Positions 9,332 to 36,449 of a stretch of 64,000 nt of DNA are shown here, piece after piece. Made by a program: the position numbers and the translations under genes. The stretch is from the NCBI GenBank assembly GCA_050084515.1, contig CM114271.1, positions 19,778,001-19,842,000 of the forward strand, read 5' to 3'. The notes beneath the pieces are model-generated. The model searched no databases. It saw nothing but the letters and a program-made list of their open reading frames with translations, and was not told where the DNA came from. Source of the stretch: Blasia pusilla (taxonomy: Eukaryota). The first letter of the stretch is position 1. Each line of letters opens with the position of its first letter.

Positions 9332-10606
9332 CGTCAAGGAGTGCTTGTTGCAGCATGTCACCATGTGGAGGAAAAAGAAGAAGTGAAGTAATTGTAAAGG
9401 GTGGCACTTTGGTGACATGTGGATTTTTTTAACTATGAGTCGTGTCATATTAAGCAAAGAAAAAGACTCAATTTATGGTCGGTTTTATAATTCTGAATTT
9501 AAGGATTCACGACATGCGCTAGAACTTCTTACATTAAATTAAAAATGTAAAAACTGTGTAAATAAAAATTAATTTAATATTTTTATTTATAATCAGAAAA
9601 TAATTTTGATAAATGCAAAACATGCCGACCTTAAATTTTTTAATTTATTTTTTAGTCCCTTTGTTGTACTCCCTATAGGTTCTTGTTTCCTACGGATCCC
9701 TTACTAGTAACGTTAATAATTTATGTTTCAACTATGAATGAACCTAACTTAACATGACCTAAAGTACTTTCAAGAGAAATCTAATGATTAAATTAAACAG
9801 TTAAAAATTTTAATTAAATTAAAACCTAAAAATTTACACCTTCCAATTAGAATCTATGTAATTAAAAAAGGAATGTTTACAGGAAACTCTCCTTTTTTAA
9901 AGATTCCTCTATAATCTATAAGAGTATGTACCTTGTGATGCACCGGCAAGAGTTCTTTTAATTTAATTATTATCTTTAAATGATATCTCTTATCTCAATA
10001 ATCATAGTGGACTCTTAAAAAGACACGTGTCAACATGTGAGGAGAGTTTCTTGTAAACCCATCCTCTTTTTACTACCTAGATTATAATGGGAGGATATAA
10101 ATTTTTAGCTTTTTAATTTAATCATTAAATTTCTCTCTAAAATACTTTAGGTCATGTTAAGTTGGGTTCATATAGAGTTGAAACATGAATTATTAACGTT
10201 ACTAGTAGGTTTTGAAACAAGAACCTATAGGGAGTACAACAGAGGGACTAAAAGATAAATTAAAACACTTAAGGACGGCATGTTTTGCATTTATCAAATT
10301 TATTTTCTTATTATAATTAAAGATTTTAAAAATCTTGATAAATTTGTTTTTATTTACAATTCTTTTACATTTTTAATGTAAGATGTTCTGGCGCATGTCA
10401 TGAGTCCTTAAATTCATAATTATAAAACCGACCATAAATTGAGTCTTTTTCTTTGCTTAACATGACACAACTCATAGTTAAAAAAATCCACATGTCACCA
10501 AAGTGCCACCCTTTACATTTACTTCACTGATTCCTTTTTTCTCCACATGGTTACCCAAAAAGAGTTGTAGCAATGGTCCACTTGCTACAACAAACACTCT
10601 TTGACG
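9332..10606. mobile_element. Foldback/MITE-like non-autonomous element with long imperfect inverted arms (~9332-9892 and ~10041-10606)
   Basis: 9384 tgaagtaattgtaaagggtggcactttggtgacatgtgg is the reverse complement of ~10488-10526. Matches continue inward to ggaaactctcc/ggagagtttc. AT-rich, no ORF. Confidence 0.8.
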
Positions 10607-14841: not shown

Positions 14842-17800
14842 CTAAATCATCCGCAGCTCATATTCACCAGCCATTGTGATGTAGCGCACCCATGGAAGTG
14901 CCTGGTAACCACTTTTTTCTATAATCTTCAGGTATCTCACCTGAAAAACGAACAGGTTCGCATTGATGGAATTATGTCAGAGTAGAAGAATTGAAGAAAA
15001 GGCTGCTTTGAGACATAAATCGAGTAAATTTGCTCAGGCTCCCCATTATTAAATCTACAACTACCTCTTCTGTCTAAGAGGAATCTGATACCTGGCAAGA
15101 AAATTCTTTCCCCCGGCGGGAAAAACGGGATTTGAACCCGCGATTCTGGCTTGACAGACAAGTGCTATAAACCACTAAGCTAATTAATCAACACCTTAGA
15201 TCAGACAAGTTACCTGAATTCCAGAAACAGTGAAATATGGAATTTCGAATTTCACACGGATGGGTGGTCGCTTTTCGGGAAGAGCCTCCTCAGCCGCTAT
15301 GCTCGGAAGACCAAACTTAGCCCTCAACATATATTCCTGTGTGAAATGAGAAACTTGATATGAATTCACCTTCTCTGTATCTAGACCTAGCTATACGAGT
15401 AAACAAGCTCCAATCAGAACTATCAATCATCTGTATACATTGCCAAATGTCATACCATCACTGCAAAACAACTTTACTCATGAAAACACAAACCAAGTTT
15501 GCAAATCAGCAAACTAACCTTTCCACCAGGGAATGACTTGATTTTCCACAGGAGAGCCTCTCTTTCAGGCGCATACACAGCTGACCCCATTGAAGTACGG
15601 ACAGCTGGTGTAGTCGCATCCGATGGTACTGGCAGTTCGATCTCCACATTGGTGGCAGTACTGGATGCCAGCCATCATACACGGAATAGTCCAAGAACAA
15701 TCAGGGAAGAAAACTGGAAGATAAAGGAGATCATCTGGTGACAACACAGGTTGCCTTGACATTGTTGAAAGCTGCAAGATTTTCAACTACAAACGAACTC
15801 TGCATACAGATGGATGACAGAAAAGGAAACAGTTCCTCAACTGAACAAGCAGAGAAGCCGAGAATATAGATCCTTCTGAGAGATTTAGAATGACCTCTTA
15901 CCTCCGTTCTTTGAATTGACTGCGAGCCTTGACCATATACTCTACCCGACTCCTGGAATGACGCTCCACTTGAGCTTCCACCCAGATTAGTGGCCTTACC
16001 TGAAAACATTCCCAGTCATGTGCACCTCATTGACATTGCTATAACACTAACAAATTATGCATCCCTTTAGAGCCATGAACATTGGGAAAAACTCAGCTGC
16101 ATTATTGCATCTTCACTACCAATTTGATTCCTGGCACAACAGAAAGCAGGGACAGTAGTTCACATACCTGTGTACTCAAACGGTATGTCATTAAGTCAAA
16201 AGCACCATCAGGGGGAATGAAGGAAATGGTGCGATCATTCTCAAAGCGAGCTAGTCTTACACATCTGCAGGAGCATCAAATTGACATACAAGTTAGTGTT
16301 GCAGAAGACAGCCTCTAGTAGACACCCTTTCACACCATTTAGAACCTGATATGAGATACAGTAAGGTGGGTTATTAGTCTGGATGTGCAATAACCATCAA
16401 CAGTTATAAAAACTGCCCCACGACCCTTTAGAAAGAGATGACAACTATCTCAAGAGTATAATGAGAACGAAAGCTCACGTACAACAATCAAGCCTGGGTG
16501 AATTTTGAAGTGAGTAGGCTCCTTACTGATGGAACTTGATGTCGTCCAAATCAATTGATTTCCCTTTCGTTGAACGACCTTGAGCTTCCAAAAGCACTCT
16601 GTCATTTAGACCTAGTTTGCACTCTGGCATTCCACTGAATAGGTAGGGAAAACGTTTAGAAAGTGGTTCCAGGAGATTTACCACTTGACCACCACGAAAA
16701 CAACACACATAAGACAGCCTTTTACACCAACTGAATCAGTATTAGGAGAAAGATGCTAAAATCGGCAGAAGATAAGATGAAAGCCAAACCTGAGATAAGT
16801 GCGCATCTTCAGAGCACCAACCACATCAGACCGTACAAGTTGACTATTGCTGTTGACCAAAATGTTCACACTTTCCACAACATCTAAGAAGACCTAATCA
16901 GCACAGGACGTAATATTAGTGTGGTTCACCAAGAGATGCTGCTAAAATTCATTTTATTATGTTTCAACTCCCCACGGCTCGATCAGAAAAAGTAGCGATT
17001 AGCCTCTCCCATTCTTCCTCATAAATAGGCTTACCATCCAGGGATATAAAGATGACAACCCACCTCATTTTTCTTGTACTTGATACCTTCCATGCGCCAA
17101 GAGACTGCATTGGTAACAGCCATGGGAGGTCTCGTTGTCATCTCTATTTTGTATGCATCAGTCTTGATGAACTCACTCAGAATCTTCGCCTCCGTATATT
17201 GAGGATAACCAAAATCCATCATTTCATCTAGCAATTCATACTGTCAAAAGTGCATGAGGTTACAAAAATCAGTCATGAGTGAAACTGTATTGTACACCAA
17301 AATGCAATAAGGAAACCGCTTGTTGGAAAGGGGGACTTACCACCACAACAAAATTATCTCGGAGTGATTCCTCTTCAAGTTCCTCAAAATAGTGCTTGAA
17401 GACCTGCCCAAGCAAGTGACCAATATTCAGATACAAAGGCAACAAATCTGAGTGAACATAGCCACAGCCTTCTACAATACACACTCCACTGTTTATATGG
17501 AATTGGGCAGTTGAGGCAATACCCTGACATAGTTTTCATTATGGCATTCAGCCGAGTTTTCACTGAACAATGAAGTAAAATAAATGTAGGAGTAGGAGAT
17601 CTTACGTCTACGACACGGTGGAGGAAGAGTAACAGACTGGCTGCATTGCAGTTCTGCCTTGAGGCAGTCATCACATAGACATTGTTGTACTGAATGAAAA
17701 GATATGTCACGCCATCATCATAAACTACAGGCTCATGAGAAGAAGGGTCCGTCTGCAATATCCACAATTAGTGAGGTGATCATAGCTTGTACACCCTTGA

Positions 17801-18107
17801 CTATGTGAAGGACGATCAGTTCTTTGAATACTCGATGCACAAGTTGAGCCAAATGACTTTTTTTCTTTAAAGATGGAAAATGCAGCCTTGTAGCCTCCTT
17901 TCAAATTTGACAATTTTCAGGTCTGACGTAGATCAAGATCAAACGAGGAAAAAAGTGATTTATCTTCAAACAACTCACCTCCCCATCCATCAGCTTGCTG
18001 AAGAAACGCTCTGCTTGGGCAGCCGAAACATCACCACGGTAATCTCGCCATACTAAAACTCGACCCTTCATGTCCAACAGAAACACTGCGGACGCAGCAC
18101 CCGTCAT
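14842..18107 (-). CDS. AP1M: AP-1 adaptor complex medium (mu) subunit, multi-exon (exon 1 18107-17979, exon 2 17752-17606, last exon 14940-14842)
   Basis: [81 protein letters not shown] and C-terminal [26 protein letters not shown] junctions. Confidence 0.95.
15117..15182 (-). pseudogene. trnD: tRNA-Asp(GUC) pseudogene, organellar/bacterial type, 5' acceptor strand lost, in the last AP1M intron
   Basis: Minus strand reads TAGCTTAGTGGTTTATAGCACTTGTCT-GTC-AAGCCAGAATCGCGGGTTCAAATCCCGTTTTTCCCG: D-arm, GTC anticodon loop, GGTTCAAATCC T-loop. Upstream GATTAAT cannot pair with TTTTCCC. Confidence 0.75.
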
Positions 18108-21100
18108 GATGACCTAATTCTTGTACCACGTTTCTTTGTTCAATTATAGCTGCATTTGCAACTAGGTGTAGCGACCAGACAAGGAAGTTCTGGATGATGT
18201 AGGAGGGCTTGACTGAGGGATAACGCCTGCCAGCGATCTAAGCACTTGAAGGACCAGCATGGGCGTTGCGTCACTTTGCATCAACTCCAACAACTGAATA
18301 GAACAGTGGGATGTGATCAGTACACGGAAGTAATTTCTCCTAGAACAGTGAAATAAAGGTAAACTCGTCCTTCTTTGAGCCATCTTCAGCAGGTCCACTG
18401 AAGAATTAGAGATCGCCATTACCAAAGAAAGCATGGTATACAGTATGCTTCTTAGTATACGTCACTTAAAGCCTCGGTTCAGAACAAGCAACTGACGAGT
18501 GGCGTCCCAAAGGCGACTCCCTGTCGTAAGTGGAGTTCGGATGGCAAACAGAACTATCACCTCCAAAGTCACCCCGAGCAAAAACACTACGTAACCTTAA
18601 ACGGAGAGAGAGGTCGTTTCCGAATCGAGAGCATCCGAAAAGCAACCCTGGAGTCTGAAGACCATCCACATGAAAAATCATGATGCTCCTGATAGCTTGA
18701 CCTTCCAAATTGACACTTCCACGAATTGCAACACTTCCACTGCAGTACATTTGAGAGCGATCGTGACGTTTCACGTATGACTTTCACATTACGCCTCCAC
18801 TTAGAGCATTCAGTACAACTCCAGGAGCAGTTGTTCCCTCCTCCAAGTGATTTTTCAATAACAACTCTGCATGGAGATACTTAATGCTAGATCAGATCCA
18901 GAAAGCCGTGTGGAACTGAAGTGCTACTCGGTGCCTGATCTAGTACTTACAATTAGAAAGATGTCGTCGCGAATGTTGAGCCCCGCAAGCCGCGTCAGCT
19001 CTAGTACCTGCTGTTGCTCTGCAAACATTGAGCAGGCACAAGCTACCAACGATCAACGTCTGCAGCGGTTGATTCCCACTGAAACTCAAAGATCAGCACC
19101 CAATACCACAAGCGACAGAGATCTTCCACACTCCGGAGCGTACACTAAAACAACCGTCTGCTCCTCCTGACTCGTCTTCCTTCATCGACACTGGCGTCTA
19201 TTGCTCGCAGCAGGCGATGGCACGCACTAGGTACTCAATTACCGCTAACAAAATTCTCCCTACTGATGAGCACGAGATTGGCGAAAACACCGGAAGCGAT
19301 CGGATCTTACCCGGGGTGAGGGGATCGCGGGGAGCCATTGCGCCATAGCCGAGACCAGATGAGGAAGCAGTGGCGGATTGTTCAAACGCGCATCAATCCG
19401 CGCGAGATTACCCAGATCGCGAGCGCAAGAAGAGGAGGAGCGCAGGAAACACAGCCCTAAGGCACGGAAGCGTGAAAGGAAAGAGCACAACGTAAGAAGA
19501 GGGCTCCACATCCAGCAGCAGGAGCATGAGTAGGAGAAGGCAGAAAGGTATCTCCCGTGTAAAGAAGCTCCGAGACAGAAAGCCGAGGAGACAAGAGAAT
19601 GAGCCCAACCACAGTCATCAAGATAGTACCAGGGATCCCAACCTGGTGGCAATCCCTGCTCCCATCAGGGTTTCCACGGAGTCTCTATTACGGCAATGAT
19701 TGTTTTGCGACTGCAGTTGAGAACTAAGTTGGGACGCCGTAACCACGGCGTCCCAACTTAATAATTGCTTTTGGTTGAATCTTTCCTTTGAGTCCGTAGT
19801 TGTAATGACTCGATTGCGACTGCGGTCGGGAACTACGTTGAGAGGTCCTGTCTAGAATGATTGCCTCTCGTTGAATTTTATTAATTTTATCTAAATTATT
19901 AAAGTTCCAGGGAAAGAAATGAAAAAGTACAATTTCCCTGCGTATGAAAGACCATGTAGGAAATGATGTGGCCAAAGTTTCTATCATACATCTCAAACAT
20001 TTAGAGATGGCATGTCATGTAAGAAAAAAAGGATAGCCATGTTGAAAGGCCCTAGCAAGAATGATTTTTTTGAATTTTCCGAATGAAAAACAATCCAAAT
20101 TTTATGTTGTAGATGCAGTCCACCATATTAACATCAAAAGCGTAGACGCTCTAAACCATCACCTATATTTCTCCTTGGCCTTCTCTCAAGCATATTTGTA
20201 AACATGTATATAATAATTGGCTACAACAAAATACGTAACATTTTTTAATGTTGCTTTACCCCATTAGACGGGTAGAAATAGAAATGAATAGGGATTTGAA
20301 TGAAATATATAGTAATAAAATATGATGAAAAAATTATGAATTTTTACCTCAATTCATATTTAATGGAAAAAAGAAATAAAAATTTAATGGAAGAGTAGAT
20401 TTTGTTTAAATTTTATGGAAAGATAAAATTATTTAATATATTGGGATATCATTTAAATTTGAATGGAGGATTATAATTACTAAGAACAGTGAAATGTTAT
20501 TACTTTTCTAAGATTTTAGAAAATAGAAATCATATTTAAAATTTAAAATAAATAACAAAATAATTTTTTAAATAATTGTATTAATTCAAATGTTATATTT
20601 TGGGAAAGGAACTAAATTTAATGGAAAAGGAAAATTATTCCGTTAATTAAAATTAGCTAAGATTTTGGTAAGAGAATATTATTTTGGTGGGAAGAATGGA
20701 AGTGGAAGAATAGTGATTGTTTGAGCTTTTACGGAGGAGTGAAATTATTTAGGGGAGATGGGTGTTATTTAAAGGTGAAATTTTCTTACTCTTTTAACAT
20801 TTAAAAAAGTGGAAATTATACTTAAGTTTTAAAATTAAATTAAATTTTAAATTTTAAATATAATTTTAAAAAACTATTATTGACACTTGCTTTTTAAGGG
20901 CCTATTGACATGTGGTAATTGGACAAGAAAAAAATGTTTCACGTGTTATGGGCATAAAGAAATAAGTTTGAATTTGTGTGCAACATCATTAATCCCTTCA
21001 CTAACAAAGGCTCTTCAAACACTGTGCTTAGATGTCCAAATTGTGCACCATTTCTTTCCAAATGTGCAAAAATTCCTGATCTACAATGTCATCAAATTTA

Positions 21101-22619
21101 TTCCCTCATTCAACTTTCCATCAGAAATTGAAGACCCAAGGAGATCGACACACCAGGGGAGAGATCGGGAGAGATACCCTTGGACTTCTTGGGATGTTTT
21201 GCAGGTATACCAGGAGATGATAGCCACAGCATCGAGTGAGGTTATGGGCACTGCATGTGGAGGAGATCAGAGTTTGCAGTTGGTTGTAGGAGAGCGGCCA
21301 AGTGTTGGTGTTCGAGACGGGGTTGCACCATAGCAACCATCGATACCCGTGTCGGAGAGTCCTACCATAGTCACGATGGAGACTTGGGAGCCAGATATGG
21401 ACCCTAAGTTGACAGGAGAAGAGCGGCGCCGGATACATCAGTTCCTTAGGAGTTATAAGAGCTGCTTTGTGTTTAGCATGGAGGATTTGGGTACTGTGAA
21501 AGGACCAGGATCCGCATTGAGTTGTCGAGTGATACGCCGATCTTCCGAGACCCTACAGGTACAGTGATATGGAGAGGGCTCTGATTCATAGTAAGAGCCA
21601 AGACTTGGTTGGAGCAGGACTAGTGGAGATGTCGCATATGCATGGGGAGTATGCATCTGCCACTGTCATGTCTGCCAAGAAGGATGTGTATGGCAACTAG
21701 ACGGATAGGCGAATGTGTGGGGATTACCCGCCTATCAATCGACATACGAAGTCTGATAGGTATGCCATGCCCACTCCCGAGGAGATCTTTGATGCGATTG
21801 GTCTAGCAAAGGTCTTTAGTTCATTTGATTTGCGAGCCGGATACCATCAGCTGCCTATCAGATTGGAGGATAGGCAAAAGACGACATTTTGGGGCATCGA
21901 TTCTCACGGGAAGGATTGTTTGTACCAGTGGCGGTTCTTACCATTTGGGTTAAGGAACGCCCTGGATGAGTTTCAAAGGGTCATGGATAGAATCTTGGCA
22001 TGTTTGGATTTTGCTAGGTGTTATATTGATGATATTTTAGTCTTTAGTGCCACAGTTGAAGAGCATGAGCGAGATCTAGAGGAGGTATTTCGACGATTGT
22101 AGTTACATGGGCTGAAGCTACATCTAGGCAAGTGTAAGTTCTTCTCCGACCAAATTGAGAACTTGGGTCATACAATATACCCAGGTGGCCTTGGTGTTCT
22201 ACAGACGAAGGTAGAGGCTATTTCACGCATTCCACGCCCTAAAGATGTAAGCCGTGTTTGTGCATTCATGGGATTGGCGAACTTCTATCGTCGGTACGTC
22301 AAGGGATTCATTTTGATTGCGAAGCCATTAACCTTGCTGACCAAGGTGGATCATGAGTGGCAGTGCGGGGATGAGCAGGAGCGAGCATTTCAGCTGCTCA
22401 AGGACATATAGACGTCCGCGCCCATCTTGAGGAGATCGATCAAGGGGCGTCCTTTCCAATTGCACACAGATTGGAGCATGTTGGGGCTTGGAGTGGTGCT
22501 CACCCAACATGATGATGAGGGTTGAGAGTTCGTGGTGACTTACGCTAGCCGTTCGAGCAACGTTGTAGAGGCGAGGCACAACTCGTATGAGGGTGAGTGT
22601 TTGGTTGCGGTGTGGACTG

Positions 22620-22985
22620 TGTCATGACCATACGGATTATGTCGTAGAGTATAGTGTGCTAGTAGAGGACATTCCTTATGTAGGACCGTAGTGGCTTGGT
22701 AGAGATGCGGTTCCATACATAGGGTTGGGGGTTACTCAGTTGGGGGTGAGTTTCCCAGTAGGGCCCGCTCTTAGGTTGGAGGATATAAGGTGGAGTGCAT
22801 TCAAAGAACAGTCAGTTCTTTGAGTTGAGCCTGTTGCGTTGGGAGTTAGCCTTGGTAGTGAGTAGAGCTCTTGGCTATGGTGTTTCCCGCAAGCTTCGAC
22901 CTGGATTCTCCCATCGTGGAGTGGGTTTGGCTCGATTGTATGTGATTGTAAACGTGTTTTATGACAGTAGGTCTTTCACGGATTT
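22620..22985 (+). repeat. Element B repeat A1 (direct copy of A2 at 31580-31947), contains a TATA box at 22784
   Basis: Near-identical from tgtcatgaccatacgg to ctttcacggattt in both copies. Confidence 0.92.
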
Positions 22986-22986
22986 C

Positions 22987-22999
22987 ACTCAAAGAACTG
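22987..22999 (+). promoter_or_regulatory. Putative self-priming primer-binding site of element B
   Basis: actcaaagaactg, just after A1, is the exact reverse complement of cagttctttgagt (22813-22825), which starts ~29 nt after TATAA. No TGG-type tRNA PBS is present. Confidence 0.7.
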
Positions 23000-24358
23000 G
23001 AGTAGATCGATGGTAGCTTCGATTGTAGATCAGTAGGATCTGGTTAGGGTTGATTGTGTACTCAACGGTGGATGTTCGGGGCTTTTTTCCTATGTTGGAG
23101 GTGTGAATCAGGTGCGTGGTTGATTGGGAAAGAAGCGCCTTGCTGAGAGCTTTCCAACGCGCTGTAGATCGCCGGATTTCGTCCAGGGAGTTGGAAGTTA
23201 TCAAACATTGAAGATTCTGGTCGTGTTCGACAGTTTTCTGATGTGGAGAGCTTGGAGTGCGGAAGCTCTGTTGAAGTTCATCCAGATCGGGTGAGAGGTT
23301 CCTATTGCTACTTGTATTGTGATCTCATGTGAATACATGTGCTACATGTATTCACGGATTTCACTCAAAGAACTGGAGTAGATCGATGGTAGCTTCGATT
23401 GTAGATCAGTAGGATCTGGTTAGGGCTGATTGTGTACTCAGCCGTGGATGTTCGTGGCTTCGAGGCAACTCGTGGTAGCTCGGGGCGAGTGGGCGTGAGA
23501 GGCGGAGTAAGGAGCAAGGAGCAAGCAAGCAAGCTTGCTTGCTTGGGCGTGAGGCAATTTTTGCAGGATTTGGGATTTGAGTTTTGCATAATCGGTCACC
23601 CATCTTTGGGCTATTTCGCTGGAGGACGCTTAACTCGCTGAGTTCTTAATTATGCCCGGTGTCTGCATTGTTGTAGCTCATTTGGTCTTTGTTCGAGATG
23701 TGTTAGGCGCTTTATGCATCTCAGGTTTTTGTTGATGTACCTCTAGCGCATAGTACGGTGTAGCCTCTCCATGCAAGTGATATTTTCAGTGTCTTTGCGA
23801 GTTCGACTAGCACGTCATCGACCCTTGGCGGAGTAGCTATTGCGTTAGAATTGTGTGGTGGGTTTTGTGGATTCGGGGCACCACGTTTGGTGGATTGTGT
23901 TACCTTGATTTCCATTTGCGGTTGGAGGGTTGTCGTTGGACTTCACGTATCGGATCCCCTCCATCGTGCTTTTGCTTCTTGCGCGCCCATTGTTAGGGTT
24001 GACGCTGATTTCGAGTAGTGTTACTCCTGTGTGCTCGCGATAGTGAGGTGGAGTGATGACTAGTAGACCGTGGGAGGCTTCTGGTAGTGATGAGAGGTTA
24101 GATTGCCTACACCCATAGCTAGTAGAGCAACATCGACGTCACTTGGGTAATTTGGTGGTGGTGAGGCATCGGCGTTGGTCATCACGGAGCTGTCGGGTGG
24201 TCGGTTGGGGACCGTGGTGCGGACGGTGGTGGTTTCACACGGAGTGGATTTAGGTATCGGCTACCTTTTCCACTTCCGACGGTTGATGAAGAGGAGGACC
24301 AGGGTGTTCCAAACACCGAGTCTTCTACGTTGTTATCGAGTGTTGCAGCTCCATTGAT

Positions 24359-25654
24359 TTGGGACATGGACGGTGGATATGGGGCCATGAAGGCCCACGA
24401 CGATATTCGGGTGCAAAGTGGGCACCATTGAGTTGGAGGACTTCATGCGGGAGTTTGATACGTGGTGTGATATGCGATGATGTTGAACGCCACGTTGTTT
24501 ACACCCTTCTTGGCTTGGAAGGGGTTGTTTCAGCACTTGGAAGGACCACCCATGGATGATTACCATGAGTTTAGGAAGGACCATATTACTAAGATTGAGG
24601 CATGGAGACAATATTGGTCTCCAAGCTATGTGTCTATCACCCATGGTGGTATTGGTAGTAGTGCTCCTACTATGCCGGCCCGGCCCGGCGTTGAGTGGTA
24701 CGAGTACGAGCCGGAGTGGGGATACCAGTGGAGGTACTAGTGGGGGTACTAGTGGAGGTACTAGTGGAGGTACTAGTGCCCCACCATCGTTCAGCCCGGT
24801 TGCAGAGTTCTTCAAGAGGTTGAAGAAGAACTATCAGGGAGTGAAGACGGAGAAGTTGAGGAATCTTCAGGACTTTGAGCGAAAGACTGGTGAGAGTCTT
24901 TGTGAGGCATACACTCAGTATCACGCTTGATTTCGATTACCAGGGTGTGTGACCGAGGATCAAGTAGTCCGATTTTGGCACGGGATCTTGGACAGAGATT
25001 TGCGCCGTAGGGTACGTGATGCTACTCTTATGAGTGATGATTCACCCACATTGACCCATGTGTTTGCTTTATCTGAGAAGATTGAGCTTAACATGGTGAA
25101 GGAGAGAGTGGTGACATCCGCATTCAGTAGGGATACAACTACTACTTCTCGGGTTCAGCCGCCCACCTCACAGTCTCGTAGTAGTGGTGGTGGTAGTAGT
25201 AGTGGGAGTCGTGGGGGGTACATGCGACCTCAGTCAAGTCGTAGAGGGACATTTGTGCAGAGACCATTGCCTTCATTTGCTGCCCCGCAGCAAGGACAGT
25301 CATGTTGGACATGTGGAGGTGATAATGTTAGGAAGTTTTGTCCCCAAGAGGATGGGAGACAGACTTTGGAGGATGGGCCTCGATCGGCCCCAACTCGGTG
25401 TGATCATTGCGGAGACTAGGTCATCCTCGAGAGCGTTGCTTTGATCTCCATCCGAGTTGAGATCAGGCCGAGGCCGTGGTGGAGTAGCTCCGAGAGGCCG
25501 AGGTGGTAGAGGTGGTAGGGGTGGTAGAGGTGGACCCGGTGGTTGGAGAGCCTACGGTGGCTACCCCTACCACTACGACAAGTCGACTATGGTGCTGCCA
25601 AGATTGAGCTTGATTAGAGCGAGAGTTGGCTACTATGGTGGTATCCAAAGATAG
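24359..25654 (+). pseudogene. Element B gag (frameshifted), with zinc knuckles and an RGG-rich tail
   Basis: FERKTGESLCEAY, CWTCGG..C, CDHCG and RGGRGGRGG; 12-bp tandem repeats encoding GGTS at ~24720-24778; homologous to the element C gag. Confidence 0.75.
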
Positions 25655-26269
25655 ATCAGTTCGGGAGCAGGGGCTTCCACCTCTTATGGAGGGGATGATC
25701 TCTCTTATATGGCGAAAAGACAAAGTTGAGGCATCGGTGCGATTCTGAGAGGAGCCACTCGGCGTCGAGCCACGTGGTGCTCTTGTGGAGTTGGACCCAC
25801 AGAGGGGTGAGGGCCGGGAGGCGGCTAGGCTTCCCGGTCATTCTTGTTGTCGAGGTGCTTAGGACTCCATCCATGGTTCCTCACGAGCCTATTGAGCCGA
25901 CAGTGGGGATCGAGGCATCTACATCGCGTGTAGTAGACACGGATGCAAAGATCAATGCGATTGTGCGGATGGCAACCGGTGTTGGGATCCCCATTGTTTT
26001 CGCCACGGAGCTTATGGCTTTAGGAGTTGACTTAGCTCCTGTATTTGATTAGCGACCACGTTGTGTGAACGTGGGGTGTTATTCTTGCTACACGTGTTGA
26101 GGTGGATGATGGTGTTGCGGTGGAGCGACCCTCTATGTCGAGTAGCATTGAGTACGGTGCTACTTGGCGTGCAAAGAATGGGCGAAGATGGATGCATTAC
26201 CAGCCCGGCCAACCATTGATCGTGAGAGGCTTACACTGGTGTATGTATGTTGGACAACCGAGTGGGATC

Positions 26270-26660
26270 TTCCGATTGGTGAGTCCCAGACAGGACAGTG
26301 TATAGACCAGATAGAGACTTGTTAGACTCGGTGCCCAACCTTTGATGTTGGGAAAGGCGCATGTATTGGTTTGGGTATTCGGAGGTCGAGCTTGAGCCTT
26401 GCCCATTCCGATTCAAACATCACTTGGAGGAGCCAATGATAGGTCTCAATTCATGACACGGGAAAAGTTTTCTATCTGATTGAGACCAGATCATGCGATC
26501 GATAGCTCCCGGTTGGGAGTATCTGCGGTAGTCACATCACCGAGTCGTATGATGTACTAGTTGGAGGAGCGATGTGTACCCGATGGGTTTTCAGATGGAT
26601 TCTTGGATCGAGAGGCGTCTTCTGAGACCTGGTTGGCAGTCCGGGATGGACGTATGAGCC
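26270..26660 (+). pseudogene. Element B aspartic protease (frameshifted)
   Basis: LLDS-GAQPLMLGK and ESYDVLVG match the element C protease RVLLDSGAQPLMLGK. Confidence 0.65.
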
Positions 26661-27039
26661 AAGTTCTGTGAGATTTATTTCTGGGGCTCGACCAGGAGGG
26701 TCTTCCCCAACAAGTGTTAGCATCTGGCTGGTTTTAGTGGAGTAGTCACTTGGCCGAGAGACTTTTTGAGGGTAATGTTTCTTCTATGGATTCTCTGCGC
26801 ATGAGGAGGTAGAGGAGGTCCCTATTTTTTTTTGCTGCAGTGGCATCCTCATCGTTGGATGTGCCACTTTGGAGTTCAAAGCGGTGCACTACGGCAGAGG
26901 CTCATCGCCTAGTGCAAGAGGCTTGGTGTGAGGTGTTATACCTCACGAGAAAGAGGAGGCCCCACGGCGGACTCCTACAGTCGGTCCAGATTAGGTTATC
27001 CCCTTTGGATACTACACCCATTGTATGGCAAGTATCCGC

Positions 27040-27990
27040 GGAGGGTATTTGTGTGTTAGATCTCTTTGGTGGGATTAGCACTGGTTTGGTCTGCAGATGT
27101 TGCGGGCCGGTATTCTGTCTTGGAGATACGTGTATGTGGAGCGAGATGAGACGGCCAAGAGAGTCTCATCTCGACATACTAGTCAGTTGATGCGGAGATA
27201 CCCTGAGTTGTTGCCGCCATCAGCTATTCGTGGGTACCAGCGTGCTTTACCATCACACATTGCATTGTTGGGGGCGCAGGACCTTGAGAGGGTTGGTCCT
27301 GTGGATTTGGTGATTGTTGGATGGCCATGTCGGGTCATACACGTCTTTGGTCGTGGTGAGGGATTACATGACCCTAGGTCTCGATTGTTTTGGGAGATCT
27401 TACGGGTGTTACGACATCTTGAGTTCATCAGCACACGTGCTCTAGCTTACATTCTGGAGAATGTTCCATTGTTGGGTGACACTCGGACCCGGATGATGGC
27501 GAGTGTTCATGAGGTGCGCTCTTAGATTGGACCAGAGGTGTTGTTGGATGCAATGCGAGTTGGCTCGCGTGCACATCGTCCACGCTTGTGGTGGACAAAC
27601 TTGTTGCCTATGGAGGTTCTACGTCGAGCATATGATGCAGTGCAGCGGGATCCTCGCCTTATAGTGGATAGTATCTTGGATACTGGGCGACTTTCTCAAG
27701 TGGTGAGGGTTATTGATCGGTCACCCATGGCAGTGGTGAACCGTGTGGGCCAGCCTAGGATGGCACTACCCACATTTGTGAGTTTTCCTCGTCACATGCC
27801 TACTGAGGAAGGTGGTCCGGGGCTTGTATGGGATTCTCATGTGCGACGGCAGTTGGTGGAGCCTAACGCGATGAGAGAGAGCGTGCGATGGGATTTGCTC
27901 TTGGTGTGTGGCGGTTGCTTCTATTTCTCAAGCTTCACGACGTCATGTGTTGGGTCAGCCATGGACCTGAATTGTTTGACTTGGATTTTG
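27040..27990 (+). pseudogene. DNA cytosine-5 methyltransferase domain (DNMT3-like) within the element B pol, frameshifted
   Basis: Motif I VLDLFGGISTG, II YVERDE, IV VDLVIVGWPC, V GLHDPRSRLFWE, VI YILENV, VIII LDA..GSRAHRPRLWWTN, and IX/X-like EPNA..ER..MGF and AMD, in canonical order. Confidence 0.9.
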
Positions 27991-28299
27991 AGTCTTGGTA
28001 TGGGCGGCAGCGTCGACTTCGGACTATGTCGTGGGTCTTCCACCCTTGTAATGAGCTCGATGGCTAGGGGACAGTAGAGGCATCGGTGGGGCGAGGAGAG
28101 TAGTATTTTGCATCCTTGGAGTAAATGGGATGTAATGGCTCGGCATGTGGAGTTGGTTGCTCATCTTTGGTGGAAGAGTTATTTGCTCGAGATGATGGTG
28201 TAGCTAAGGGTGTACCATCTTGTGAGGGGGTTATGTAGTGACCAATGGCATCGTCCTCTCCCTCTAGTGTGACAAGTGGAGGAGACTTGGGAGCCATTA

Positions 28300-29680
28300 C
28301 TTGGGCCCAAGCTTACGGGAGGTGAGAAACGACGCTGACACACGGTTCCTACGTGCTTATAGGAGTTGTTTTGCCTTTAGCATGAAGGAGTTGGGTTCTC
28401 TGGTTGGACCCGGTATACGGATTGATTTGGCTAGTGATACGCCAATCTTCCGTCTTCCCTACCGATATAGTGATATGGAGAGGGACTTGATTGAGTAGGA
28501 CGTTGGACCTTTTGGAGGCTGGATTAGTGGAGTTGTCGCATGGAGAGTATGCATCGCCCACGGTCATGCTCGCTAAAAGGATATGCATGGAAACTACGGA
28601 TAGGCGGATGTGTGGAGATTACCGTCCTATCAATCGGCAAACCAAGGCGGATAGGTATGCCATGCCTACACTGAGAGATCTTTGATGTGGTGGGACAGCA
28701 AAGATTTTCGATGCTTTGGATCTTGGCAGATACCATCAATTGCCGATTCGGGAGAGTGACAAGGCCAAGACAACATTTTGGGGTGTCAACTCTCATGGCA
28801 AGGATTGTTTGTACCAGTGGAAATTCTTACCCTTTGGGTTGAAGAATGCACCTGCCGAGTTTCAAAGAGTGATGGACAGGATCCTAGCAGGGTTGGATTT
28901 TGTTCGGTGTTACATTGATGATATCTTGGTGTTCAGTAACACGGTGTTTGAGCGGTTGAAAGTTCATGGTCTACGTTTGCATCCTGGAAAGTGTAAGTTC
29001 TTCCATGAGGATGTTGAGTACTTGGGTCATGTGATCTATCCAGGTGGTTTGGGAGTTCAGCAAGCAAAGGTGGAGGCTATTGCACTTATTCCGCGTCCGA
29101 TAGATGTGAGTAGAGTTCGAGCATTCATGGGATTGGCGAACTACTATCGGAGGTATGTGAAGGGATTTAGTGCTATGGCAAAGCCTTTGAACCAATTGCT
29201 GAAATCAGATCAAGAGTGGCACTGGGGAGATGATCAGGAGAGAGCTTTTGTGGAGCTTAAGGCCCAGTTGGTGGCGGCGCCTATCTTGAGGAGACCTATC
29301 GAGGGCGCCCATTTCGATTACACATCGATTGGAGTAGGTTGGGACTTGGAGCGGTGTTGACACAACATGATGATGAGCACAAGGAGTTTGTGGTGGCCTA
29401 TGCAAGTCGTTCGAATAATGCAAATGAGTCGCGCTATAGTTCATATGAGGGAGAGTGCTTGGCAAGAGTGTGTGGGTTGTGGTCCACTTTAGGTGTTACT
29501 TGTTTGGCACCGGTTTACCCTTGTTCTCGATCACCAACCGCTCAAGTGGTTGATGGAGTCGGACAAGCTTACAGGGAAGCTTGCACGGTGGGCTCTTATC
29601 TTACAGGAGTATGACTTCCAGGTGGTACATAGACCTGGAGTTGCCAACCTTGATGGTGATGGGTTGAGTAGGAACCCATG
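28300..29680 (+). pseudogene. Element B reverse transcriptase and RNase H
   Basis: RMCGDYRPIN, LPFGLKNAPAEFQRVMD, YIDDILVF, YLGHVI, FMGLANYYRRYV, VAYASRS, DHQPLKWL, RWALILQEYDF. Confidence 0.92.
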
Positions 29681-30059
29681 TACTAGCCAAGAGGATACAA
29701 CAAGGGCTAGATGGCATGGCGAGGTTGATGAGGAGATGGTGCCAGGTTGGCATGCATCCGCCTTTTTATGTTGGTTAGGGGTGGACTCTAGTATGGAGGA
29801 CCACATGATATCTTACTCTAGTCAGAGGGTAGATGGCCAGCCTTCAGATCCTAAGGTTGGAGATGGTGGTACGGATCAGCGTGATATTCATGATGATGCG
29901 TTGGAGTTCCTACGGACCGGTAGGGTGCCAGGCATAGTGAGTGCCAAGGAGCGAGACCGTGTTCTTCAACGTGCTAAGAGGTATCGATTGGAGGGAACAC
30001 ATATTCTCCGCGTGTGGGAGGATGGTAGAGTACGAGTAGTGCCACATTTGGCTCAGAGA

Positions 30060-31298
30060 GAGCGCATTGTGCGACATGCCCATGAGAAGTTGGGACATTT
30101 TGGGGTAAAGCGTACGTATAGCTTACTCCTTGGCCAATATTGGTGGCGTGGCATGCATACTCAGGTGCAGCAGTTGGTGTCACGTTGTATCGTTTGTGAC
30201 CGGGTGAGGGCATCATTTAATGCCCCACACCACAATTACACCCCTTGCCTATTATGGGGTTGGGTTACCCTTGGAATGTGGACTTTGCGGGACCGTTAAC
30301 GTTGACTGTACGACATCATCGATATGTGTTGGTGATGGTGGAGCACTTCTCCAAGTGGATTGAGTTGGTGGCATTACCGGACAAGGCGAGTGAGGGAACG
30401 GCGTATGCGTTTCGGGATAGAGTGCTTAGTCATTTTGGTGCACCAGCTGAAGTGCTCACCGATCGAGTCTGAGTTTCAGGGTGAGTTTCGGTCTTGTGTG
30501 ACAAGGCGTTGATTGATCATCGGACCACGTCTCGAGATCATCCAGAGGCGGATGGTTTGGCTGGCGTGTGGTTCACACGGTGAAGAGGGCATTGCGCAAG
30601 TATGGCCTCTGAAGGGGCATCTTGGAGACCAGGATATTCGGTTGCCATGGTTAGCCATGGGGTATAGGTTGATCGCCAAGCATCCTTGGCTTCCTTCTCA
30701 CCTTATTTTCTGTTATACGGCCGAGATCCGGACTTGCCAGCAAAGAATTGTCGGGAGTCTAGTGAGGTGGTGAACCTTGATGACCCAGAGATGTGGATGA
30801 GGGTGTGTTCTCGAGCGGAGCTCTTTCGAGAGTTATGCCAATGACCTTTGAGAATCTTGCCATTGCTCAACACAGGGGATACGTTGCGGTATGCAACCAT
30901 TCGAGGTGGAGGTTATCGACCATCGATTGTAGGTTCCATGTGGGGACTATGTCTATTTGCAGCAGATTGCCCCAACAACGTTGGATGACGGCAGCCGCAC
31001 TATTTAACGAGTGCGCGAGGTGTTAGCTTCGGAGTTCTCATGTTGGAGGGTCGTGATGGAGTTGTTTGGAAGGACCATGTGCGTAATTGTGCGCCATGTC
31101 ATCTTCCAAATGTGGATGGTCTTGTTGACCCAAGCTTAGCCATGATACATGCTAGCTTGAGGTGCATGTTGTGTGGGTGCGGTAACGCGCCCGTATGTTG
31201 GTGTGTGATCGGTGTTCTAGGGGTTGGCATATGATGTGTTTGACTCCACGTTTGGATGTCGTTCCTACTGGAAGGTGGGTTTGTCCTCGATGTACTTA
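30060..31298 (+). pseudogene. Element B DDE integrase with HHCC zinc domain and C-terminal PHD finger
   Basis: HEKLGHFG..CIVC, VDFAGP, VEHFSKWIE, VLTDR, then LRCMLCG and a frameshifted PHD remainder at 31160-31298. Confidence 0.85.
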
Positions 31299-31460
31299 GG
31301 AGAGGTAGATGACTTGATCTTTGCATGATATGGATTACAGATGTGCGACTAACGATGGGGCAACCTAGCACCCGGCCTTCTGATTCGGGCACTCAAGAAG
31401 GTGTATAGCATGTAGTAGATGTATAGGACTACCTGGGAGTTAGAGGACCTAACCGCTTGA

Positions 31461-32055
31461 TTAGGGGGCGAGTTGTGGTACACTTGCGTTTGTGGATACT
31501 CTCGTCTATGTTATGTACGTATGTGAGTATGGTATGTCAGCGATGTATGTTGTATGAGGATGTGGATTCGCACGACAGCTGTCATGACCATACGGATTAT
31601 GTCGTAGAGTATAGTGTGCTAGTAGAGGACATTCCTTATGTAGGACCGTAGTGGCTTGGTAGAGATGCGGTTCCATACATAGGGTTGGGGGTTACTCAGT
31701 TGGGGTGAGTTTCCCAAGAGGGGCCCGCTCTTAGGTTGGAGGATATAAGGTGGAGTGCACTCAAAGAACGATCAGTTCTTTGAGTTGAGCCTGCTATGCG
31801 TTGGGAGTTAGCCTTGGTAGTGAGTAGAGCTCTTGGCTATGGTGTTTCCCGCAAGCTTTGACCTGGATTCTCCCATCGTGGAGTGGGTTTGGCTCGATTG
31901 TATGTGATTATAAACGTGTTTTATGACAGTAGGTCTTTCACGGATTTTAGTTGTGGTACACTTGCGTTTGTGGATACTCTCGTCTATGTTATGTACGTAT
32001 GTGAGTATGGTATATCAGCGATGTATGTTGTATGACGATGTGGATTCGCACGACA
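31461..32055 (+). repeat. Element B 3' module: PPT (31461-31470), B1 (31471-31577), GC spacer, A2 (31580-31947), B2 (31949-32055)
   Basis: B1 and B2 are 107-bp direct repeats (agttgtggtacac...cgcacgaca) on either side of A2. Confidence 0.92.
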
Positions 32056-33887
32056 ACTGTCACACATTTAAGGTGTTACTTATTCGGCAACCCCTTTACC
32101 ATCATCACTGATCATCAACCACTAAAGTGGTTGATGGAGTCCGACAAGCTTACATGGAAGCTTGCAAGATGGGCTTTGTTGCTGCAGGAGTACGATTTTC
32201 AGGTGGTACATAGACCTGGGACGCTCAACCAGGATGCAGATAGGCTGAGTCGTAACCCATGCCCGAGTCAACGAGATGCAACTAGAGCTCGATGGCATGG
32301 AGAGAGTGATGAGGAGTCAGTGTCAGGATGGCACGCGTCAGCCTACTTAGACTTGTTGGCTATGGAGAGCCAGAGTGTGGAGACTTTGATAGCGAGGTCT
32401 GATGGAGAGTCCTTGGATCCCGAGGCCAGTGAGGAGACGATAGGTGGCCGAGATATTCACGATGATGAAGTAGTCTTGGAGTATCTACGTACTGGCAGCG
32501 TTGCGAGCACAGTGGATGCTAGAGAGCGGGATCGGGTCCTTCACCGGGCTAGGTGGTTCCGCTGGGAGGGGACATATATGTTGCGAGTGTGGGAGGATGG
32601 TAGAGTGCGTGTAGTGCCTCATCCTTTGCAGATAGCACGTTTGGTGCATCATGCCCATGAGGAGTTGGGTCATTTTGGAGTGAAGCGGACATATAGCGTG
32701 CTCCAGATTCAATATTGGTGGCGAGGCATGCAGACTGATGTTCAGCAGTTTGTTGCCAGATGCATAGTGTGTGATTGAGTCCGAGCATTTTTCAATGCTC
32801 CAACTCCACAGTTGCATCCACTTCCGATCATTGTCGTGCGCATACATATCGCTACACACCATACATCGTTGGTCACATCTACACCACACAACACCAATCT
32901 TCCCCACACACGGGTCGATCCACACATGTACAAAAATGAACTCATACATATACATGGAGATCACACAACAAAAATAAAGAGTAGTAAAAACGGCACACCC
33001 GGCCTAAAACTCCACTCATCTACATCGGCATAACGAGCCTCATCCACCCTGTGCTATCAAGGAATCCGGACGCTAGCACCCTAGTCCTAGCTCACACACA
33101 TACAAGGGAGGTGCTCAACGGCCCAACATGAGAAAGATGGCTTAGGAAAGCCATCTTCCTCTCTTATATAGGGTTGGGAAGAGCCAAAAGGCTCTTCCCC
33201 TAAAAATAGCCCTCCCCTTGGTAACTTGCGCGCACAGGTTACCAAGGACGAGTGACCTGGTCAACAAGTCACCCGATTGTAAAAGAGCTCAACATGAAAG
33301 TTGTCAGAAACAACGTTTTTGACACAATGGACCTATCTTCAACCTCATCCGACACCGTGGGACAAAGTTACACTCAAGATAGTCCGCTGGCTCCTGCGCC
33401 CTATCCACAATAGATCTCGGCCTATCGGCTACTCAGATGTGACAGATTGTCGTGCACATACATATCGCTACACAACATACATCGCTAGTCACATCTACAC
33501 CACACAACACCTATCTTCCCCACACACAGATCGATCCACACATGTAAAAAATCAACTCATACATATACATGGAGATCACACAACCGCCCCCCTAGCTGGT
33601 AGTTGGATCCCCCCAACTCTAGATAGAAAATATCACATCTCTCTGACATGACCTACTACCCTATACACATCTCGGACACATCCATGATAAAAACATGACT
33701 CCACGCCTGCCTCACGAGGTCATCGGCACTCCTCTGTAGCTCCCGAGTCACACCCCACAATGGTGAAGAGGCCTCGCCAACATGGGAAGAGACACCCGCC
33801 ATGGCCTGTCTCTCCGTGGGACTATCCGCTATTGGGACATCCTCCGCATGTGCATTCCCCTCCAACAACTCTCCTAGCCAACTAACA

Positions 33888-36449
33888 CTACATGTGAAAG
33901 TTGCCAACGTGGTCACAAACTCGCCTCGTGATCGACCACCTCGTCCCGCAAACTGCATGGGGTAACTGACTCATCCGTATGTCACCTGACCGCCATCCTG
34001 GCCGATAAGCAACAGTCTCCTCCCAGAAGTCAAGGATGAATCCTAGGGGATATAACACTGTACTCCCCACCAACACATCGTACGACTCAGCTGGTGTAGT
34101 AATCGCACGTGTGCGCACCATAGCACTATCCGTCGCATGCTCTGGCTGGACTCTGACAACAATCTCCTATCAAGTCATATACTGAGTGGGTGATATGCCC
34201 CCAATCGAGGTCTGTATCTCGAAGGGACAAGGCTCAATGTCGGCCTTCCGTAACCCCAACGCTAAACACGCCGCCTTCCCTAACATCAAGGGTTGCGCTC
34301 CCGAATCAAGTAGGACGCGTTGCGGGTGGTATACTATCCTCGTCAAACTAACCAAGCGAAATACTCCAGCTCGGTTATCCAGTAACACTACTCCAGGTGT
34401 CACCCCTGCTCGCTCTATGGCCGGTCGAGCTGGCATATCTACCAACTTCGCCGCCGCCGCATGCCATGACTCTGTGGGGAACGTCCCAAGCACCGGCTCT
34501 GAGGGCAAGTCCACCACCTCCTGAACTACCTCTGAACAAGAAGCAGTCATCTCTCCATGCTCACACAATGTGGCGGCCAACCAGAACACCTTAGCTGGTC
34601 CAACTCCCAACGTTGCCAACTCTATGGCGGAAAATAGTGGAGTCTGACTCACTCTGGTGGCCACCTCCAACACTATGGTCGACACTGACTCCACTCGAGC
34701 CGGCATAGGAGTTAGTCACTCCAACTCCTCGTGACGTCGACGTAGGTGCTCGAATCAGAGGCACCGCTGATCGTCGAGGCACCATCGATGGTGTGTGTAG
34801 TGCCTCCAACAATGTGAACGAATGTGGAACCCTAGCCTGCCGCCCATCGGTCCCCTCTGGTGGGTCAATCTCAACTCCACCTCTCGATGGCTCGGTGCCT
34901 CTCGCAGCACCCGAGTCACCACTGCAGCTGCCTCAACCTCGGTTGCACTACACATAAATCCCATACTGGCGAGATCCTCACCCGGGTCAGGGTAAGAGGT
35001 AGAAGTTGGAGTCACACTAGCTGCTCGCCGCTCCGTGCCTTCCCTAAGCTGCATCATCGTCATGGCAGCAATCCTCTGCTCCAACTGATCCATGCGTGAG
35101 AGAAGTGCCGGCTCTGGTGCTCTTGCTCCATCTCCTCTGGCAAGTGGTGGTCCTCTACCACCAAGTCCAAGAAGAACTCCCCGACCTCCTCCAGAACGAC
35201 CGTCCCTAGGCCCTCGGCCTACCTCTAGACGTGCCCCTCGGCGAAGGTCAAAACATCTATCCCTAGTGTGACCATATATGTGGCAATGGTCACACTGGTG
35301 CTGTGGTGGGGCCATCCTCTGTGGCTCCTGAGCAATCGGAGGCGCTGGTGGTCCTCTCCCATATTGTGCGCAGTCTCTCTGCCTATGGGCCCCTCCACAC
35401 GTCCAACAAGACCACATCGGTCCCTGTTGGGCAACATATGTAGGTGCGGGTCGTTGCCTCAAAGGCTCATGGAACCCGCCCTGCTCTGTAGGCACATTGG
35501 CCCGCTCCCGTGGTACTGGTGCTCGCTGTGGCACCTGTGGGGTCACCGTCGCTCGTGGACCCATCGACTCTCGAGAAAATCCAGCGGTCACTACCTGCTC
35601 CTCACTCATGTTGAGCTCAATACGCTCATACAACTCAAAGACCACCTTCAATCTGGGCTTCGCTGTGTGAATCAGCACCGCATCTCGCACTCTCCTTCGT
35701 AGTTCTCGGTCCAGAACCCCGTACCAATACTGGACTGATTGCGCCTCAGTCACTCCAAAGGTAGCAATGATCAGCCTCCTCATGCATATGAATGCCTCTC
35801 TCAGACTCTCACCCGATCGTCGCTGAAAATCCTCTAGACTCTTCAGCTTGTCGGTGCGTACGCCCTGGTAGCTCTTCCCCAACTGTCGGAAGAACTCCAC
35901 TGTGGGGTTGAAGCTGGGTGGCCCTCTACCACCAGAGATCTCTGCCACATCGCCTATCTCACTGCCCTCCTCTCCATCTAGTCTCCGAGCTAATGGTGTG
36001 GGTCTCTCTCCTCTCACAATCCCATCATATGCCTCGCGACCACTAGTGGACACATATCCTGGAGCCCAATACATCCTCCAGGCATCGATCTCTACTGAAT
36101 ATAGTGATCGAAACTCCATGTAGTCATCCATCGGAGGACCCTCCAAGTGCTAGAACAACCCCTTCCATGCCATGAAAGGGTTGAACCGTGTCGGGATCCG
36201 TATCTCTTGGAAGTCGCACCATGTGTCGAACTCTTGGATAAAATCATCTAAGTCGATGGTGCCCACTGCACCCCGAGAAATGACGCATGCCCCGATGGCC
36301 CATGTCGTCCATCTCTTGCCAAGTACTATTGTCTCATGCGTGATCTCATCACGGACCGGTGTCGATGATGACGATCGATCCGCCACGGATGGATGTCGAG
36401 GGAGCTCCTTTCTGGTAACCCCTCGGTATCTCACTCCACTCCGTGTCAC
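33888..36449 (-). pseudogene. Element C gag-protease (interrupted)
   Basis: 463-aa ORF with CWTCGGAHRQRDC and CDHCHIYGHTRDRC knuckles; RVLLDSGAQPLMLG protease motif. Confidence 0.82.

Follow-up and report, generated by a model that had tools for sequence, protein, structure and literature searches.

Complementary blocks at the ends of split repeats point to Tf1-like self-priming in a DDE-integrase retrotransposon lineage of Blasia pusilla

Two decayed retrotransposons in the 64,000-nucleotide stretch of Blasia pusilla DNA analyzed here (the window), which we call B and C, each carry directly after the first copy of a repeat, A, a block of 13 or 14 nt that is the exact reverse complement of a second block inside A, about 30 nt below a TATA box. 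The best reading of this arrangement, and one that the sequence makes probable, is that the elements prime reverse transcription as Tf1 does, with the start of their own RNA. The same elements are built on split direct repeats: a second repeat, X, flanks the 3′ copy of A, and the integrated layout is A-PBS-internal-PPT-X-A-X, where PBS is the primer-binding site and PPT the polypurine tract. The features that define the pairing lie at the following positions of the window:

22784-22788, plus strand: TATAA box of B (TATAAA in the B-family alignment)
22801-22809, plus strand: upstream arm of B, the same sequence as part of the PBS, forming a hairpin with 22816-22824
22813-22825, plus strand: predicted RNA 5′ end and self-primer of B, the complement of 22987-22999, placed by its distance from the TATA box
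22987-22999, plus strand: putative PBS of B, ACTCAAAGAACTG, starting at the first base after A1
37422-37435, minus strand: putative PBS of C
37597-37610, minus strand: predicted RNA 5′ end and self-primer of C, the complement of 37422-37435
37641-37635, minus strand: TATATAA of C, 31 nt above the self-primer site

Both pairs had been claimed in an earlier note on this DNA, and both hold at every position, 13/13 in B and 14/14 in C, by direct reading and by a script that returns the longest exact complement between repeat A and the next 25 nt. The B site begins 29 nt below the first T of TATAA and the C site 31 nt below TATATAA. Both blocks stand at offset 0 from the last base common to the 5′ and 3′ copies of A, and in B a contig that joins 22986 to 31471 gives the same boundary of A. 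From the base composition of A, the number of chance matches expected anywhere in the repeat is 1.3e-5 for B and 2.2e-6 for C, and the RNAduplex energy of A against the following 16 nt was better than that of 500 of 500 shuffles in each element. As an unanchored control, we counted inverted pairs of at least 11 nt with a spacing of 110-230 nt in 38 locus regions and found about 10 unrelated pairs, 11-13 nt in length. An inverted pair alone is therefore not rare; what makes the pairs in B and C significant is their fixed position relative to the end of A and the TATA box.

Relatives were collected by scanning metagenome contigs with an RNase H-integrase alignment as the query. The scan matched 283 stretches, of which 248 encode a relative, and we analyzed the best 80 of these 248 loci. 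An alignment of 29 A copies from the family of B gives a consensus of TATAAA, ~31 nt, and then AGTTCTTTGAGT, a site that pairs with the PBS ACTCAAAGAACT. Conservation among these copies is highest between a point just above the site and the end of A; beyond that end, 5′ copies continue into ACTCAAAGAACT and 3′ copies into the start of X. The PBS motif is present at the end of A in 11 of 12 5′ copies (it is absent in L017), and the site region is deleted in three of the 12 (L004, L005, and L008). Site and PBS are both intact in eight 5′ copies, with 9-12 of 12 positions paired; over these eight, 88 of 96 cells pair, and sliding the partner by 1-3 columns lowers the proportion to 29-55%.

In a third family (L045/46, L060/63, L073/74, and loci with a 3′ end only), whose identity in the query protein is about 40%, TATAAA(A) is followed by ~33 nt and then AGTTTTTCTAGA, and TCTAGAAAAACT stands directly after the end of A (offset 0). 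Its pair is 12/12 in L045, or 13 nt counting the last base of A. Pairing falls to 9 of 12 positions in the decayed copies L060 and L073, including a G-U wobble in L073, and the duplex of L060 is no better than shuffles. L040 likewise pairs at 12/12, and 29-33 nt separate TATA box and site in each of B, C, L040, and L045. The pair in C is a third, unrelated sequence, and no relative of repeat A of C or of a further element, D, was found among the 80 loci, which have no more than the final 40-65 nt of X in common with these elements; C is accordingly the single member of its family. Across the three families the sequence differs and the pairing is conserved, as had been proposed from B and C; conserved with it are the offset from the end of A and the distance to the TATA box. 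A blind scan for more self-priming families recovered L045/L046 and nothing further that was firm. The same scan gave a doubtful pair in L028/L029 that does not abut the repeat end.

Covariation across family members had been put forward as a check on the pairing, and the outcome differs with the depth of the comparison. The B family and the third family differ at four duplex positions, and all four have changed on both sides. Within the B family, covariation support is weak: L024 carries two compensatory double changes, and 40 of 500 shuffles reach two compensated pairs.

A host RNA could prime these elements instead, for example an internal tRNA fragment as in copia-type elements, in which case the self-match would be incidental or secondary. 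Half-tRNA priming of this kind is described for plant copia lineages (PMC6317226), and we nevertheless regard it as unlikely here. The PBS begins with ACT, ACA, and TCT in the three families and with TGG in none, so that the CCA-3′ end of a mature tRNA cannot pair. An internal fragment would have to account for three sites that each match their own repeat about 30 nt below their own TATA box, and for the compensation at four of four differing positions; three different fragments, each equal to the start of its element's own RNA, would be a far less economical explanation. A search for host tRNAs with ARAGORN yielded 0 in 50 loci and a single doubtful call in the window, a tRNA-Leu at 32030-32105 on the minus strand, which we regard as spurious because it spans the end of X2 of B and host flank.

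A second alternative is that the duplex closes the R region for some other role, such as packaging, dimerization, or 3′-end control, while the primer binds elsewhere. In favor of such a role, the whole R region folds into a closed stem, if with modest z-scores (−1.7 to −4.5). The conserved upstream arm gives a second hairpin, with the consensus CTCAAAGAAC-ATA-GTTCTTTGAG in the alignment of B-family A copies, and the motif GGAGTAG recurs downstream of the PBS in the family of B. We nonetheless judge a structural role with a separate primer improbable. In all three families the end of A coincides exactly with the start of the duplex, and because the boundary of A is the start of the minus strand in LTR-type replication, the primer must anneal at the PBS sequence. 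Two rearranged sequences argue in the same direction. L014 carries X1, A, and the PBS, after which A positions 3361-3536, the stretch immediately upstream of the site, follow in reverse complement; the inverted part stops at the reverse complement of the start of A, where flank begins. A contig of the run named X5 reads across the boundary of A and through the PBS as far as 22998, where it passes into an apparent inverted copy of the sequence upstream of the site. The inversion in L014, and apparently that in the X5 contig, needs a 3′ end placed at the duplex, and we infer that both are by-products of a 3′ end that annealed there and was extended, in which case the paired blocks come together in the course of replication. 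That L014 finishes at an X/A-type site suggests that integrase can cut such a site near a DNA end. A search of 22500-23500 against Rfam at E up to 1 gave no match. The upstream arm at 22801-22809 is itself able to pair with the self-primer site.

A chance inverted repeat has a negligible probability: unanchored pairs occur at the rate seen in our control, but the anchored expectation is 2e-6 to 9e-5 per family, and three families share the same TATA distance.

Tf1-like self-priming, the reading that we prefer, would proceed as follows. Transcription would start within repeat A, some 30 nt downstream of the TATA box, as judged from the TATA distance; a pyrimidine-A step is present at the predicted start site, and the RNA of B probably begins at the A at 22814. 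The first 12-14 nt of the RNA would fold back onto the complementary 12-14 nt directly after A, RNase H would cut behind the duplex, and the freed 3′-OH would prime minus-strand DNA, as in Tf1, whose primer is the first 11 nt of its own mRNA and is reported not to be removed. Minus-strand priming at the duplex would explain why A ends exactly where the duplex begins. The earlier proposal of self-priming thus gains support from the pairing at the exact end of A, from its recurrence in three families, and from the lack of a TGG start. Minimum-energy folds of RNAs that begin at the predicted start agree with it: nt 1-12 are paired with the PBS in B, L040, and L045, and in C the PBS takes up 10 of 14 nt.

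The end of A acquires a second meaning from the architecture of the elements, which is set out here for B, C, and D:

22616-22619: left target-site duplication of B, ACTG (right copy, 32056-32059)
22620-32055, plus strand: element B
22620-22986, plus strand: repeat A1 of B (promoter plus R), starting TGTCATGACC and 97% identical to 31580-31948
23351-23460, plus strand: duplicate of 22975-23084 (96% identical), comprising the final 12 nt of A, the PBS, and ~95 nt of leader
27079-27525, plus strand: C5 cytosine DNA methylase fragment inside the pol of B (Pfam PF00145, E 4.3e-7)
28686-30469, plus strand: fragments of the RT, RNase H, integrase zinc finger, and integrase core of B, in broken frames (Pfam)
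31463-31470, plus strand: polypurine tract of B, AGGGGGCG, adjoining X1 on its 5′ side
31471-31577, plus strand: repeat X1 of B, ending GCACGACA and 97-98% identical to X2
31574-31583: X/A junction of B, a 10-bp palindrome, GACAGCTGTC, with the integrase ends abutted
31580-31948, plus strand: repeat A2 of B (self-comparison)
31949-32055, plus strand: repeat X2 of B, the 3′ terminus of the integrated element
32828-32831 and 37916-37919: target duplication of C, TCAT (ATGA in the orientation of C)
32832-37915, minus strand: element C
32832-32969, minus strand: X2 of C, its 3′ terminus
32970-33444, minus strand: A2 of C, 93.5% identical to 37436-37915
33446-33584, minus strand: X1 of C
33585-33593, minus strand: polypurine tract of C, AGGGGGGCG, preceding X1 in the element's orientation
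37436-37915, minus strand: A1 of C, starting TGTCACATC in the element's orientation
39164-39293, 39294-39766, and 39767-39897, plus strand: X1, A, and X2 at the 3′ end of element D, with a G-run tract before X1
20920-22615, 32060-32827, and 37920-39163: body of D, ~75% like B

In both B and C the G-run polypurine tract adjoins X1 and not A2, and the PBS lies directly 3′ of A1. The repeat made in reverse transcription is therefore X·A, with the end of A as its 3′ end, and the permuted-LTR model advanced in the earlier note holds. Integration follows other boundaries. B starts with TGTCATGACC and finishes with GCACGACA between flanking copies of ACTG; C, in its own orientation, starts with TGTCACATC and finishes with GCACGACA between copies of ATGA; and the termini of both are of the integrase-like TG...CA type with 4-bp target duplications. 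We conclude that integrase acts at the TGTC... with which A starts and at the ...GACA with which X finishes, and that these are not the ends defined in reverse transcription. The claim that A closes at the real 3′ end of the LTR is accordingly right for reverse transcription but not for the integrated element, which ends with the GACA of X. The X1/A2 junction consists of the two integrase ends abutted, GACA-GC-TGTC in B (the 10-bp palindrome) and GACA-ATC-TGTC in C, and the A2/X2 junction joins the base before the PBS to the base after the tract. In 19 distinct insertions, the ends defined by PBS and tract are offset from the integrase ends by one X.

Target duplications are perfect 4-bp repeats in 8 of 11 insertions (B, C, L008, L028, L032, L003, L005, and L024), match at three of four bases in L016 and L041, and are not clear in L060. 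B and C both interrupt D with such duplications, and contigs of the runs named X2 and X7 join 32826 to 37915, the empty site of C. Self-comparison and the 80 related loci did not reveal a 5′ end of D with its PBS. Private variants are common to X1 and X2 of one element, and no signature specific to X1 or to X2 runs across elements; both X copies are thus renewed at each transposition, as LTRs are. Origin of X2 by tandem duplication after insertion is ruled out by these shared private variants, by the target duplications, and by the recurrence in three families.

Pfam identified in the open frames, in this order, RVT_1, RT_RNaseH, Integrase_H2C2, and rve, followed in D and most relatives by a PHD finger (PF00628). 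The frames scanned had no match to a tyrosine recombinase (Phage_integrase) and none to a chromodomain, the expected mark of the Tf1/sushi clade. D is without the C5-DNMT stretch of B. Both B and C are dead copies with broken frames, and C resembles the protein of B in its gag-like part only; RT is absent from C, which makes it non-autonomous. The nearest named proteins come from the liverworts Calypogeia, Riccia, and Marchantia and also from Klebsormidium, and many of the nearest proteins carry PF00628 (PHD) and some PF00145 (DNMT). B and C are decayed members of a streptophyte lineage of Ty3/gypsy type, with RT, RNase H, a DDE integrase, and a PHD finger.

The lineage sits across two established groups. 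It has the RT-RNase H-DDE integrase order and the short target duplications of Ty3/gypsy elements (Metaviridae), but in place of two identical LTRs it has A only at the 5′ end and X-A-X at the 3′ end. It has the split direct repeats of the DIRS order (A1 ... B1-A2-B2), but rve, Integrase_H2C2, and target duplications where that order has a tyrosine recombinase and no known duplication. Membership in DIRS/Ngaro, first suggested by the X-A-X arrangement, is ruled out by the DDE integrase identified with Pfam.

The relatives show how often each form of insertion occurs. Of the 35 loci that are 6 kb or longer and extend 3.2 kb or more past the integrase match, 18 have a pair of X copies ~430-495 nt apart; one of these 18 pairs, in L031, is a satellite artefact. 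For counts of form we mapped A and X of two families onto all 80 loci and counted an insertion assembled in several samples once among distinct insertions. X-A-X stands at the 3′ end of 21 loci, which represent 16 distinct insertions, or 19 with B, C, and D, and the G-run before X1 recurs in X-A-X loci. Thirteen loci have A-internal-X or internal-X and continue for 700 nt or more past it, with neither A nor X recurring. None of 16 distinct 5′ ends has A-X-A. About 10 loci were left unclassified on account of contig ends, partial repeats, or rearrangements (L014, L015, L022, L025, L031, L058, L059, L061, L067, L071, and L073). The A2/X2 junction varies slightly: the third-family copies L051, L064, and L076 have a 2-nt overlap, and L006/L008 have 19 extra bases, composed of a 17-nt patchwork and CG from the tract side. 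These variants fit a junction that is made anew.

Joined to self-priming, this architecture suggests a replication cycle. Plus-strand DNA would begin at the G-run polypurine tract before X1, giving the repeat X·A, and the ordinary two jumps would yield the linear product X·A-PBS-internal-PPT-X·A. Integrase would join to the host the start of A and the end of X, which lie abutted as a quasi-palindrome inside X·A; cutting at the X/A site nearest each end would then produce A-internal-X, the form of the 13 loci. Since A-internal-X is without a 3′ copy of R, it could not replicate further, and the 13 loci may be dead-end products of the same pathway; later recombination between X1 and X2 is an equally possible origin. 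A competent form would need X after the right-hand A, and this second X could arise in either of two ways: the plus strand, on reaching the end of A, could switch to the start of X at the opposite end of the molecule, or the two ends could be joined to make a two-repeat (tandem-LTR) circle. Symmetric opening of a two-repeat circle does not account for the insertions, because it predicts A-X-A-internal-X as often as the form observed (0 of 16 versus 19). X may be a downstream element for 3′-end formation, present only at the 3′ copy of A.

The A2/X2 junction, with the last base before the PBS, the first base after the tract, and small variants, resembles the junction of retroviral 2-LTR circles. 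Those circles are regarded as dead ends, whereas the junction here is part of every replication-competent integrated copy. We hold it possible, short of probable, that the streptophyte gypsy lineage described here combines a DDE integrase with the split direct repeats of DIRS and Ngaro and that its competent insertion needs a tandem-repeat intermediate. Full-text searches, with most subscription journals and Repbase outside their scope, did not turn up split direct repeats in combination with a DDE integrase, nor any account of this lineage in liverworts or of its ends. As far as these searches reach, the combination is a new variant of architecture.

Self-priming itself has precedents. PMC4600332 describes it as demonstrated for Tf1, with inference extending to Tj1 and to elements found from fungi to vertebrates, and states that in Tf1/Tf2, Tj1, and Tf1/sushi elements the PBS directly after the 5′ repeat is complementary to the start of the mRNA of the element itself, which dispenses with a tRNA. 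The lineage described here is like Tf1/sushi in a PBS complementary to its own predicted RNA start and in the RT-RH-IN order of Ty3/gypsy; it is unlike Tf1/sushi in its duplex of 12-14 nt, its PHD finger, the lack of a chromodomain in the frames scanned, and the split A ... X-A-X repeats. For plants, PMC6317226 gives predictions of self-priming in the Tcn1 clade (mosses and club-mosses) and in TAR copia, amounting to 12% of the elements surveyed; the words Marchantia, liverwort, and Klebsormidium are absent from its main text. These are, like ours, LTR elements of land plants with predicted self-priming, but the present lineage differs in having a PHD finger, sometimes a DNMT domain, and split repeats. 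Self-priming here would add a liverwort-type lineage to a mechanism already known from Tf1/sushi, TAR copia, and moss Tcn1.

According to PMC7192593 and PMC8557442, the DIRS order is marked by split direct repeats, in PAT-like, Ngaro, and VIPER elements; they appear also in SymbioDIRS-Dnmt3 (PMC5890265). All of these share with our elements the layout A-coding region-B-A-B, and the ends joined internally at X1/A2 resemble the internal circle junction of DIRS-1, whose primer is stated to be unknown in PMC7192593. The difference lies in the DDE integrase and the 4-bp target duplications here as opposed to the tyrosine recombinase there. KnitGypsy-Dnmt3 of Klebsormidium nitens, designated an "LTR Gypsy retrotransposon" in PMC5890265, has a gypsy-type pol with an embedded C5-DNMT, and B has its PF00145 fragment. 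Klebsormidium proteins were among our matches, two of them named and one of these with PF00145. To our knowledge, elements of the DIRS order lack target duplications.

The architecture matters more than the priming. It departs from a textbook rule: the ends defined by reverse transcriptase differ from those used by integrase in at least three families and 19 distinct insertions. LTR finders expect two equal terminal repeats and would probably misannotate or miss these elements, above all the A-internal-X form, which has no terminal repeat. Here the PBS and the polypurine tract of a split-repeat element can both be read, which offers a testable hypothesis for priming and for the rebuilding of ends in DIRS-type elements. 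If the proposed design is correct, split repeats are not tied to tyrosine recombinases, and the lineage could be a living model of a step between LTR and DIRS-type elements. The window, which is 44% G+C, is recognizably eukaryotic, since it holds an intron-bearing TRAPPC9 gene and a Helitron.

The leader of element B, a decayed gypsy-type retrotransposon, carries a second copy of the block that contains its primer-binding site (PBS), found by self-comparison of the window:

23351-23460, in the B leader, duplicate of 22975-23084: the PBS, preceded by the final 12 nt of repeat A and followed by about 95 nt more

This block lies 376 nt downstream of the first copy, and B therefore has two primer-binding sites. 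PBS sequence also recurs elsewhere: a partial copy stands directly above the predicted RNA start of B. Together with the predicted self-primer site, this upstream PBS-like copy forms a hairpin of 9-10 bp with a short loop, in both the window (22801-22824) and the B-family consensus, and element C has a weaker counterpart. This hairpin region is deleted in four (L004, L005, the 5' copy of L008, and L027) of the 29 aligned A copies.

In repeat X, TG/GT runs are abundant in B, C, D (the member into which B and C inserted), and both locus families. Across the same set, conservation of X is limited to its last 40-65 nt, which end in GCACGACA. This conserved end may contain the integrase recognition site and perhaps also a signal for 3'-end formation. 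ARAGORN called a tRNA-Leu(taa) at 32030-32105 on the minus strand, spanning the X2 end of B, the target duplication, and D sequence. We set this candidate aside as probably spurious because X1 of B, which is identical to X2 there, yields no tRNA call.

Between its gag-like part and reverse transcriptase, B carries an additional coding remnant:

27079-27525, C5 cytosine methyltransferase (DNMT) fragment

Element D lacks about 1 kb at this position, and DNMT-bearing and DNMT-free forms coexist among the relatives.

Of the related loci from metagenome contigs, L014 (3244-3878) is rearranged: at the right end of the insertion, the 5' part of A recurs in inverted orientation, fused to the preceding sequence at the PBS. 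The order is X1, A, PBS, and the reverse complement of A's 5' part; the terminus is the reverse complement of the A start. In L029 and L035, other repeat pairs surround or follow a B-family element:

L029 1473-2366 and 15907-16990, repeat pair
L029 14218-19131, further repeat-pair region
L035 5694-10547, further repeat-pair region

One pair is spaced 14.4 kb, its left copy having a 122-nt extra block, and another is spaced about 4.5 kb, with a 175-bp tandem ahead. These may be further nested elements from other families.

Elsewhere, the window contains the following features:

9360-9810 with 10099-10551, inverted copies of an approximately 450-bp repeat at 87% identity (self-comparison)
17762-19674 and 56984-58907, 1.9-kb inverted repeat pair, 96% identical (self-comparison)
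51440-56666, plus strand, Helitron remnant with broken frames
53032-53613, plus strand, Helitron_like_N, part of this remnant
55035-56666, plus strand, PIF1 helicase pieces, part of this remnant
59113-62957, plus strand, TRAPPC9/Trs120 gene exons, with introns

One copy of the 1.9-kb pair adjoins the Helitron and the other lies upstream of element D. Within the TRAPPC9/Trs120 gene is a 307-bp tandem pair (61189-61842) whose copies are 99.7% identical.
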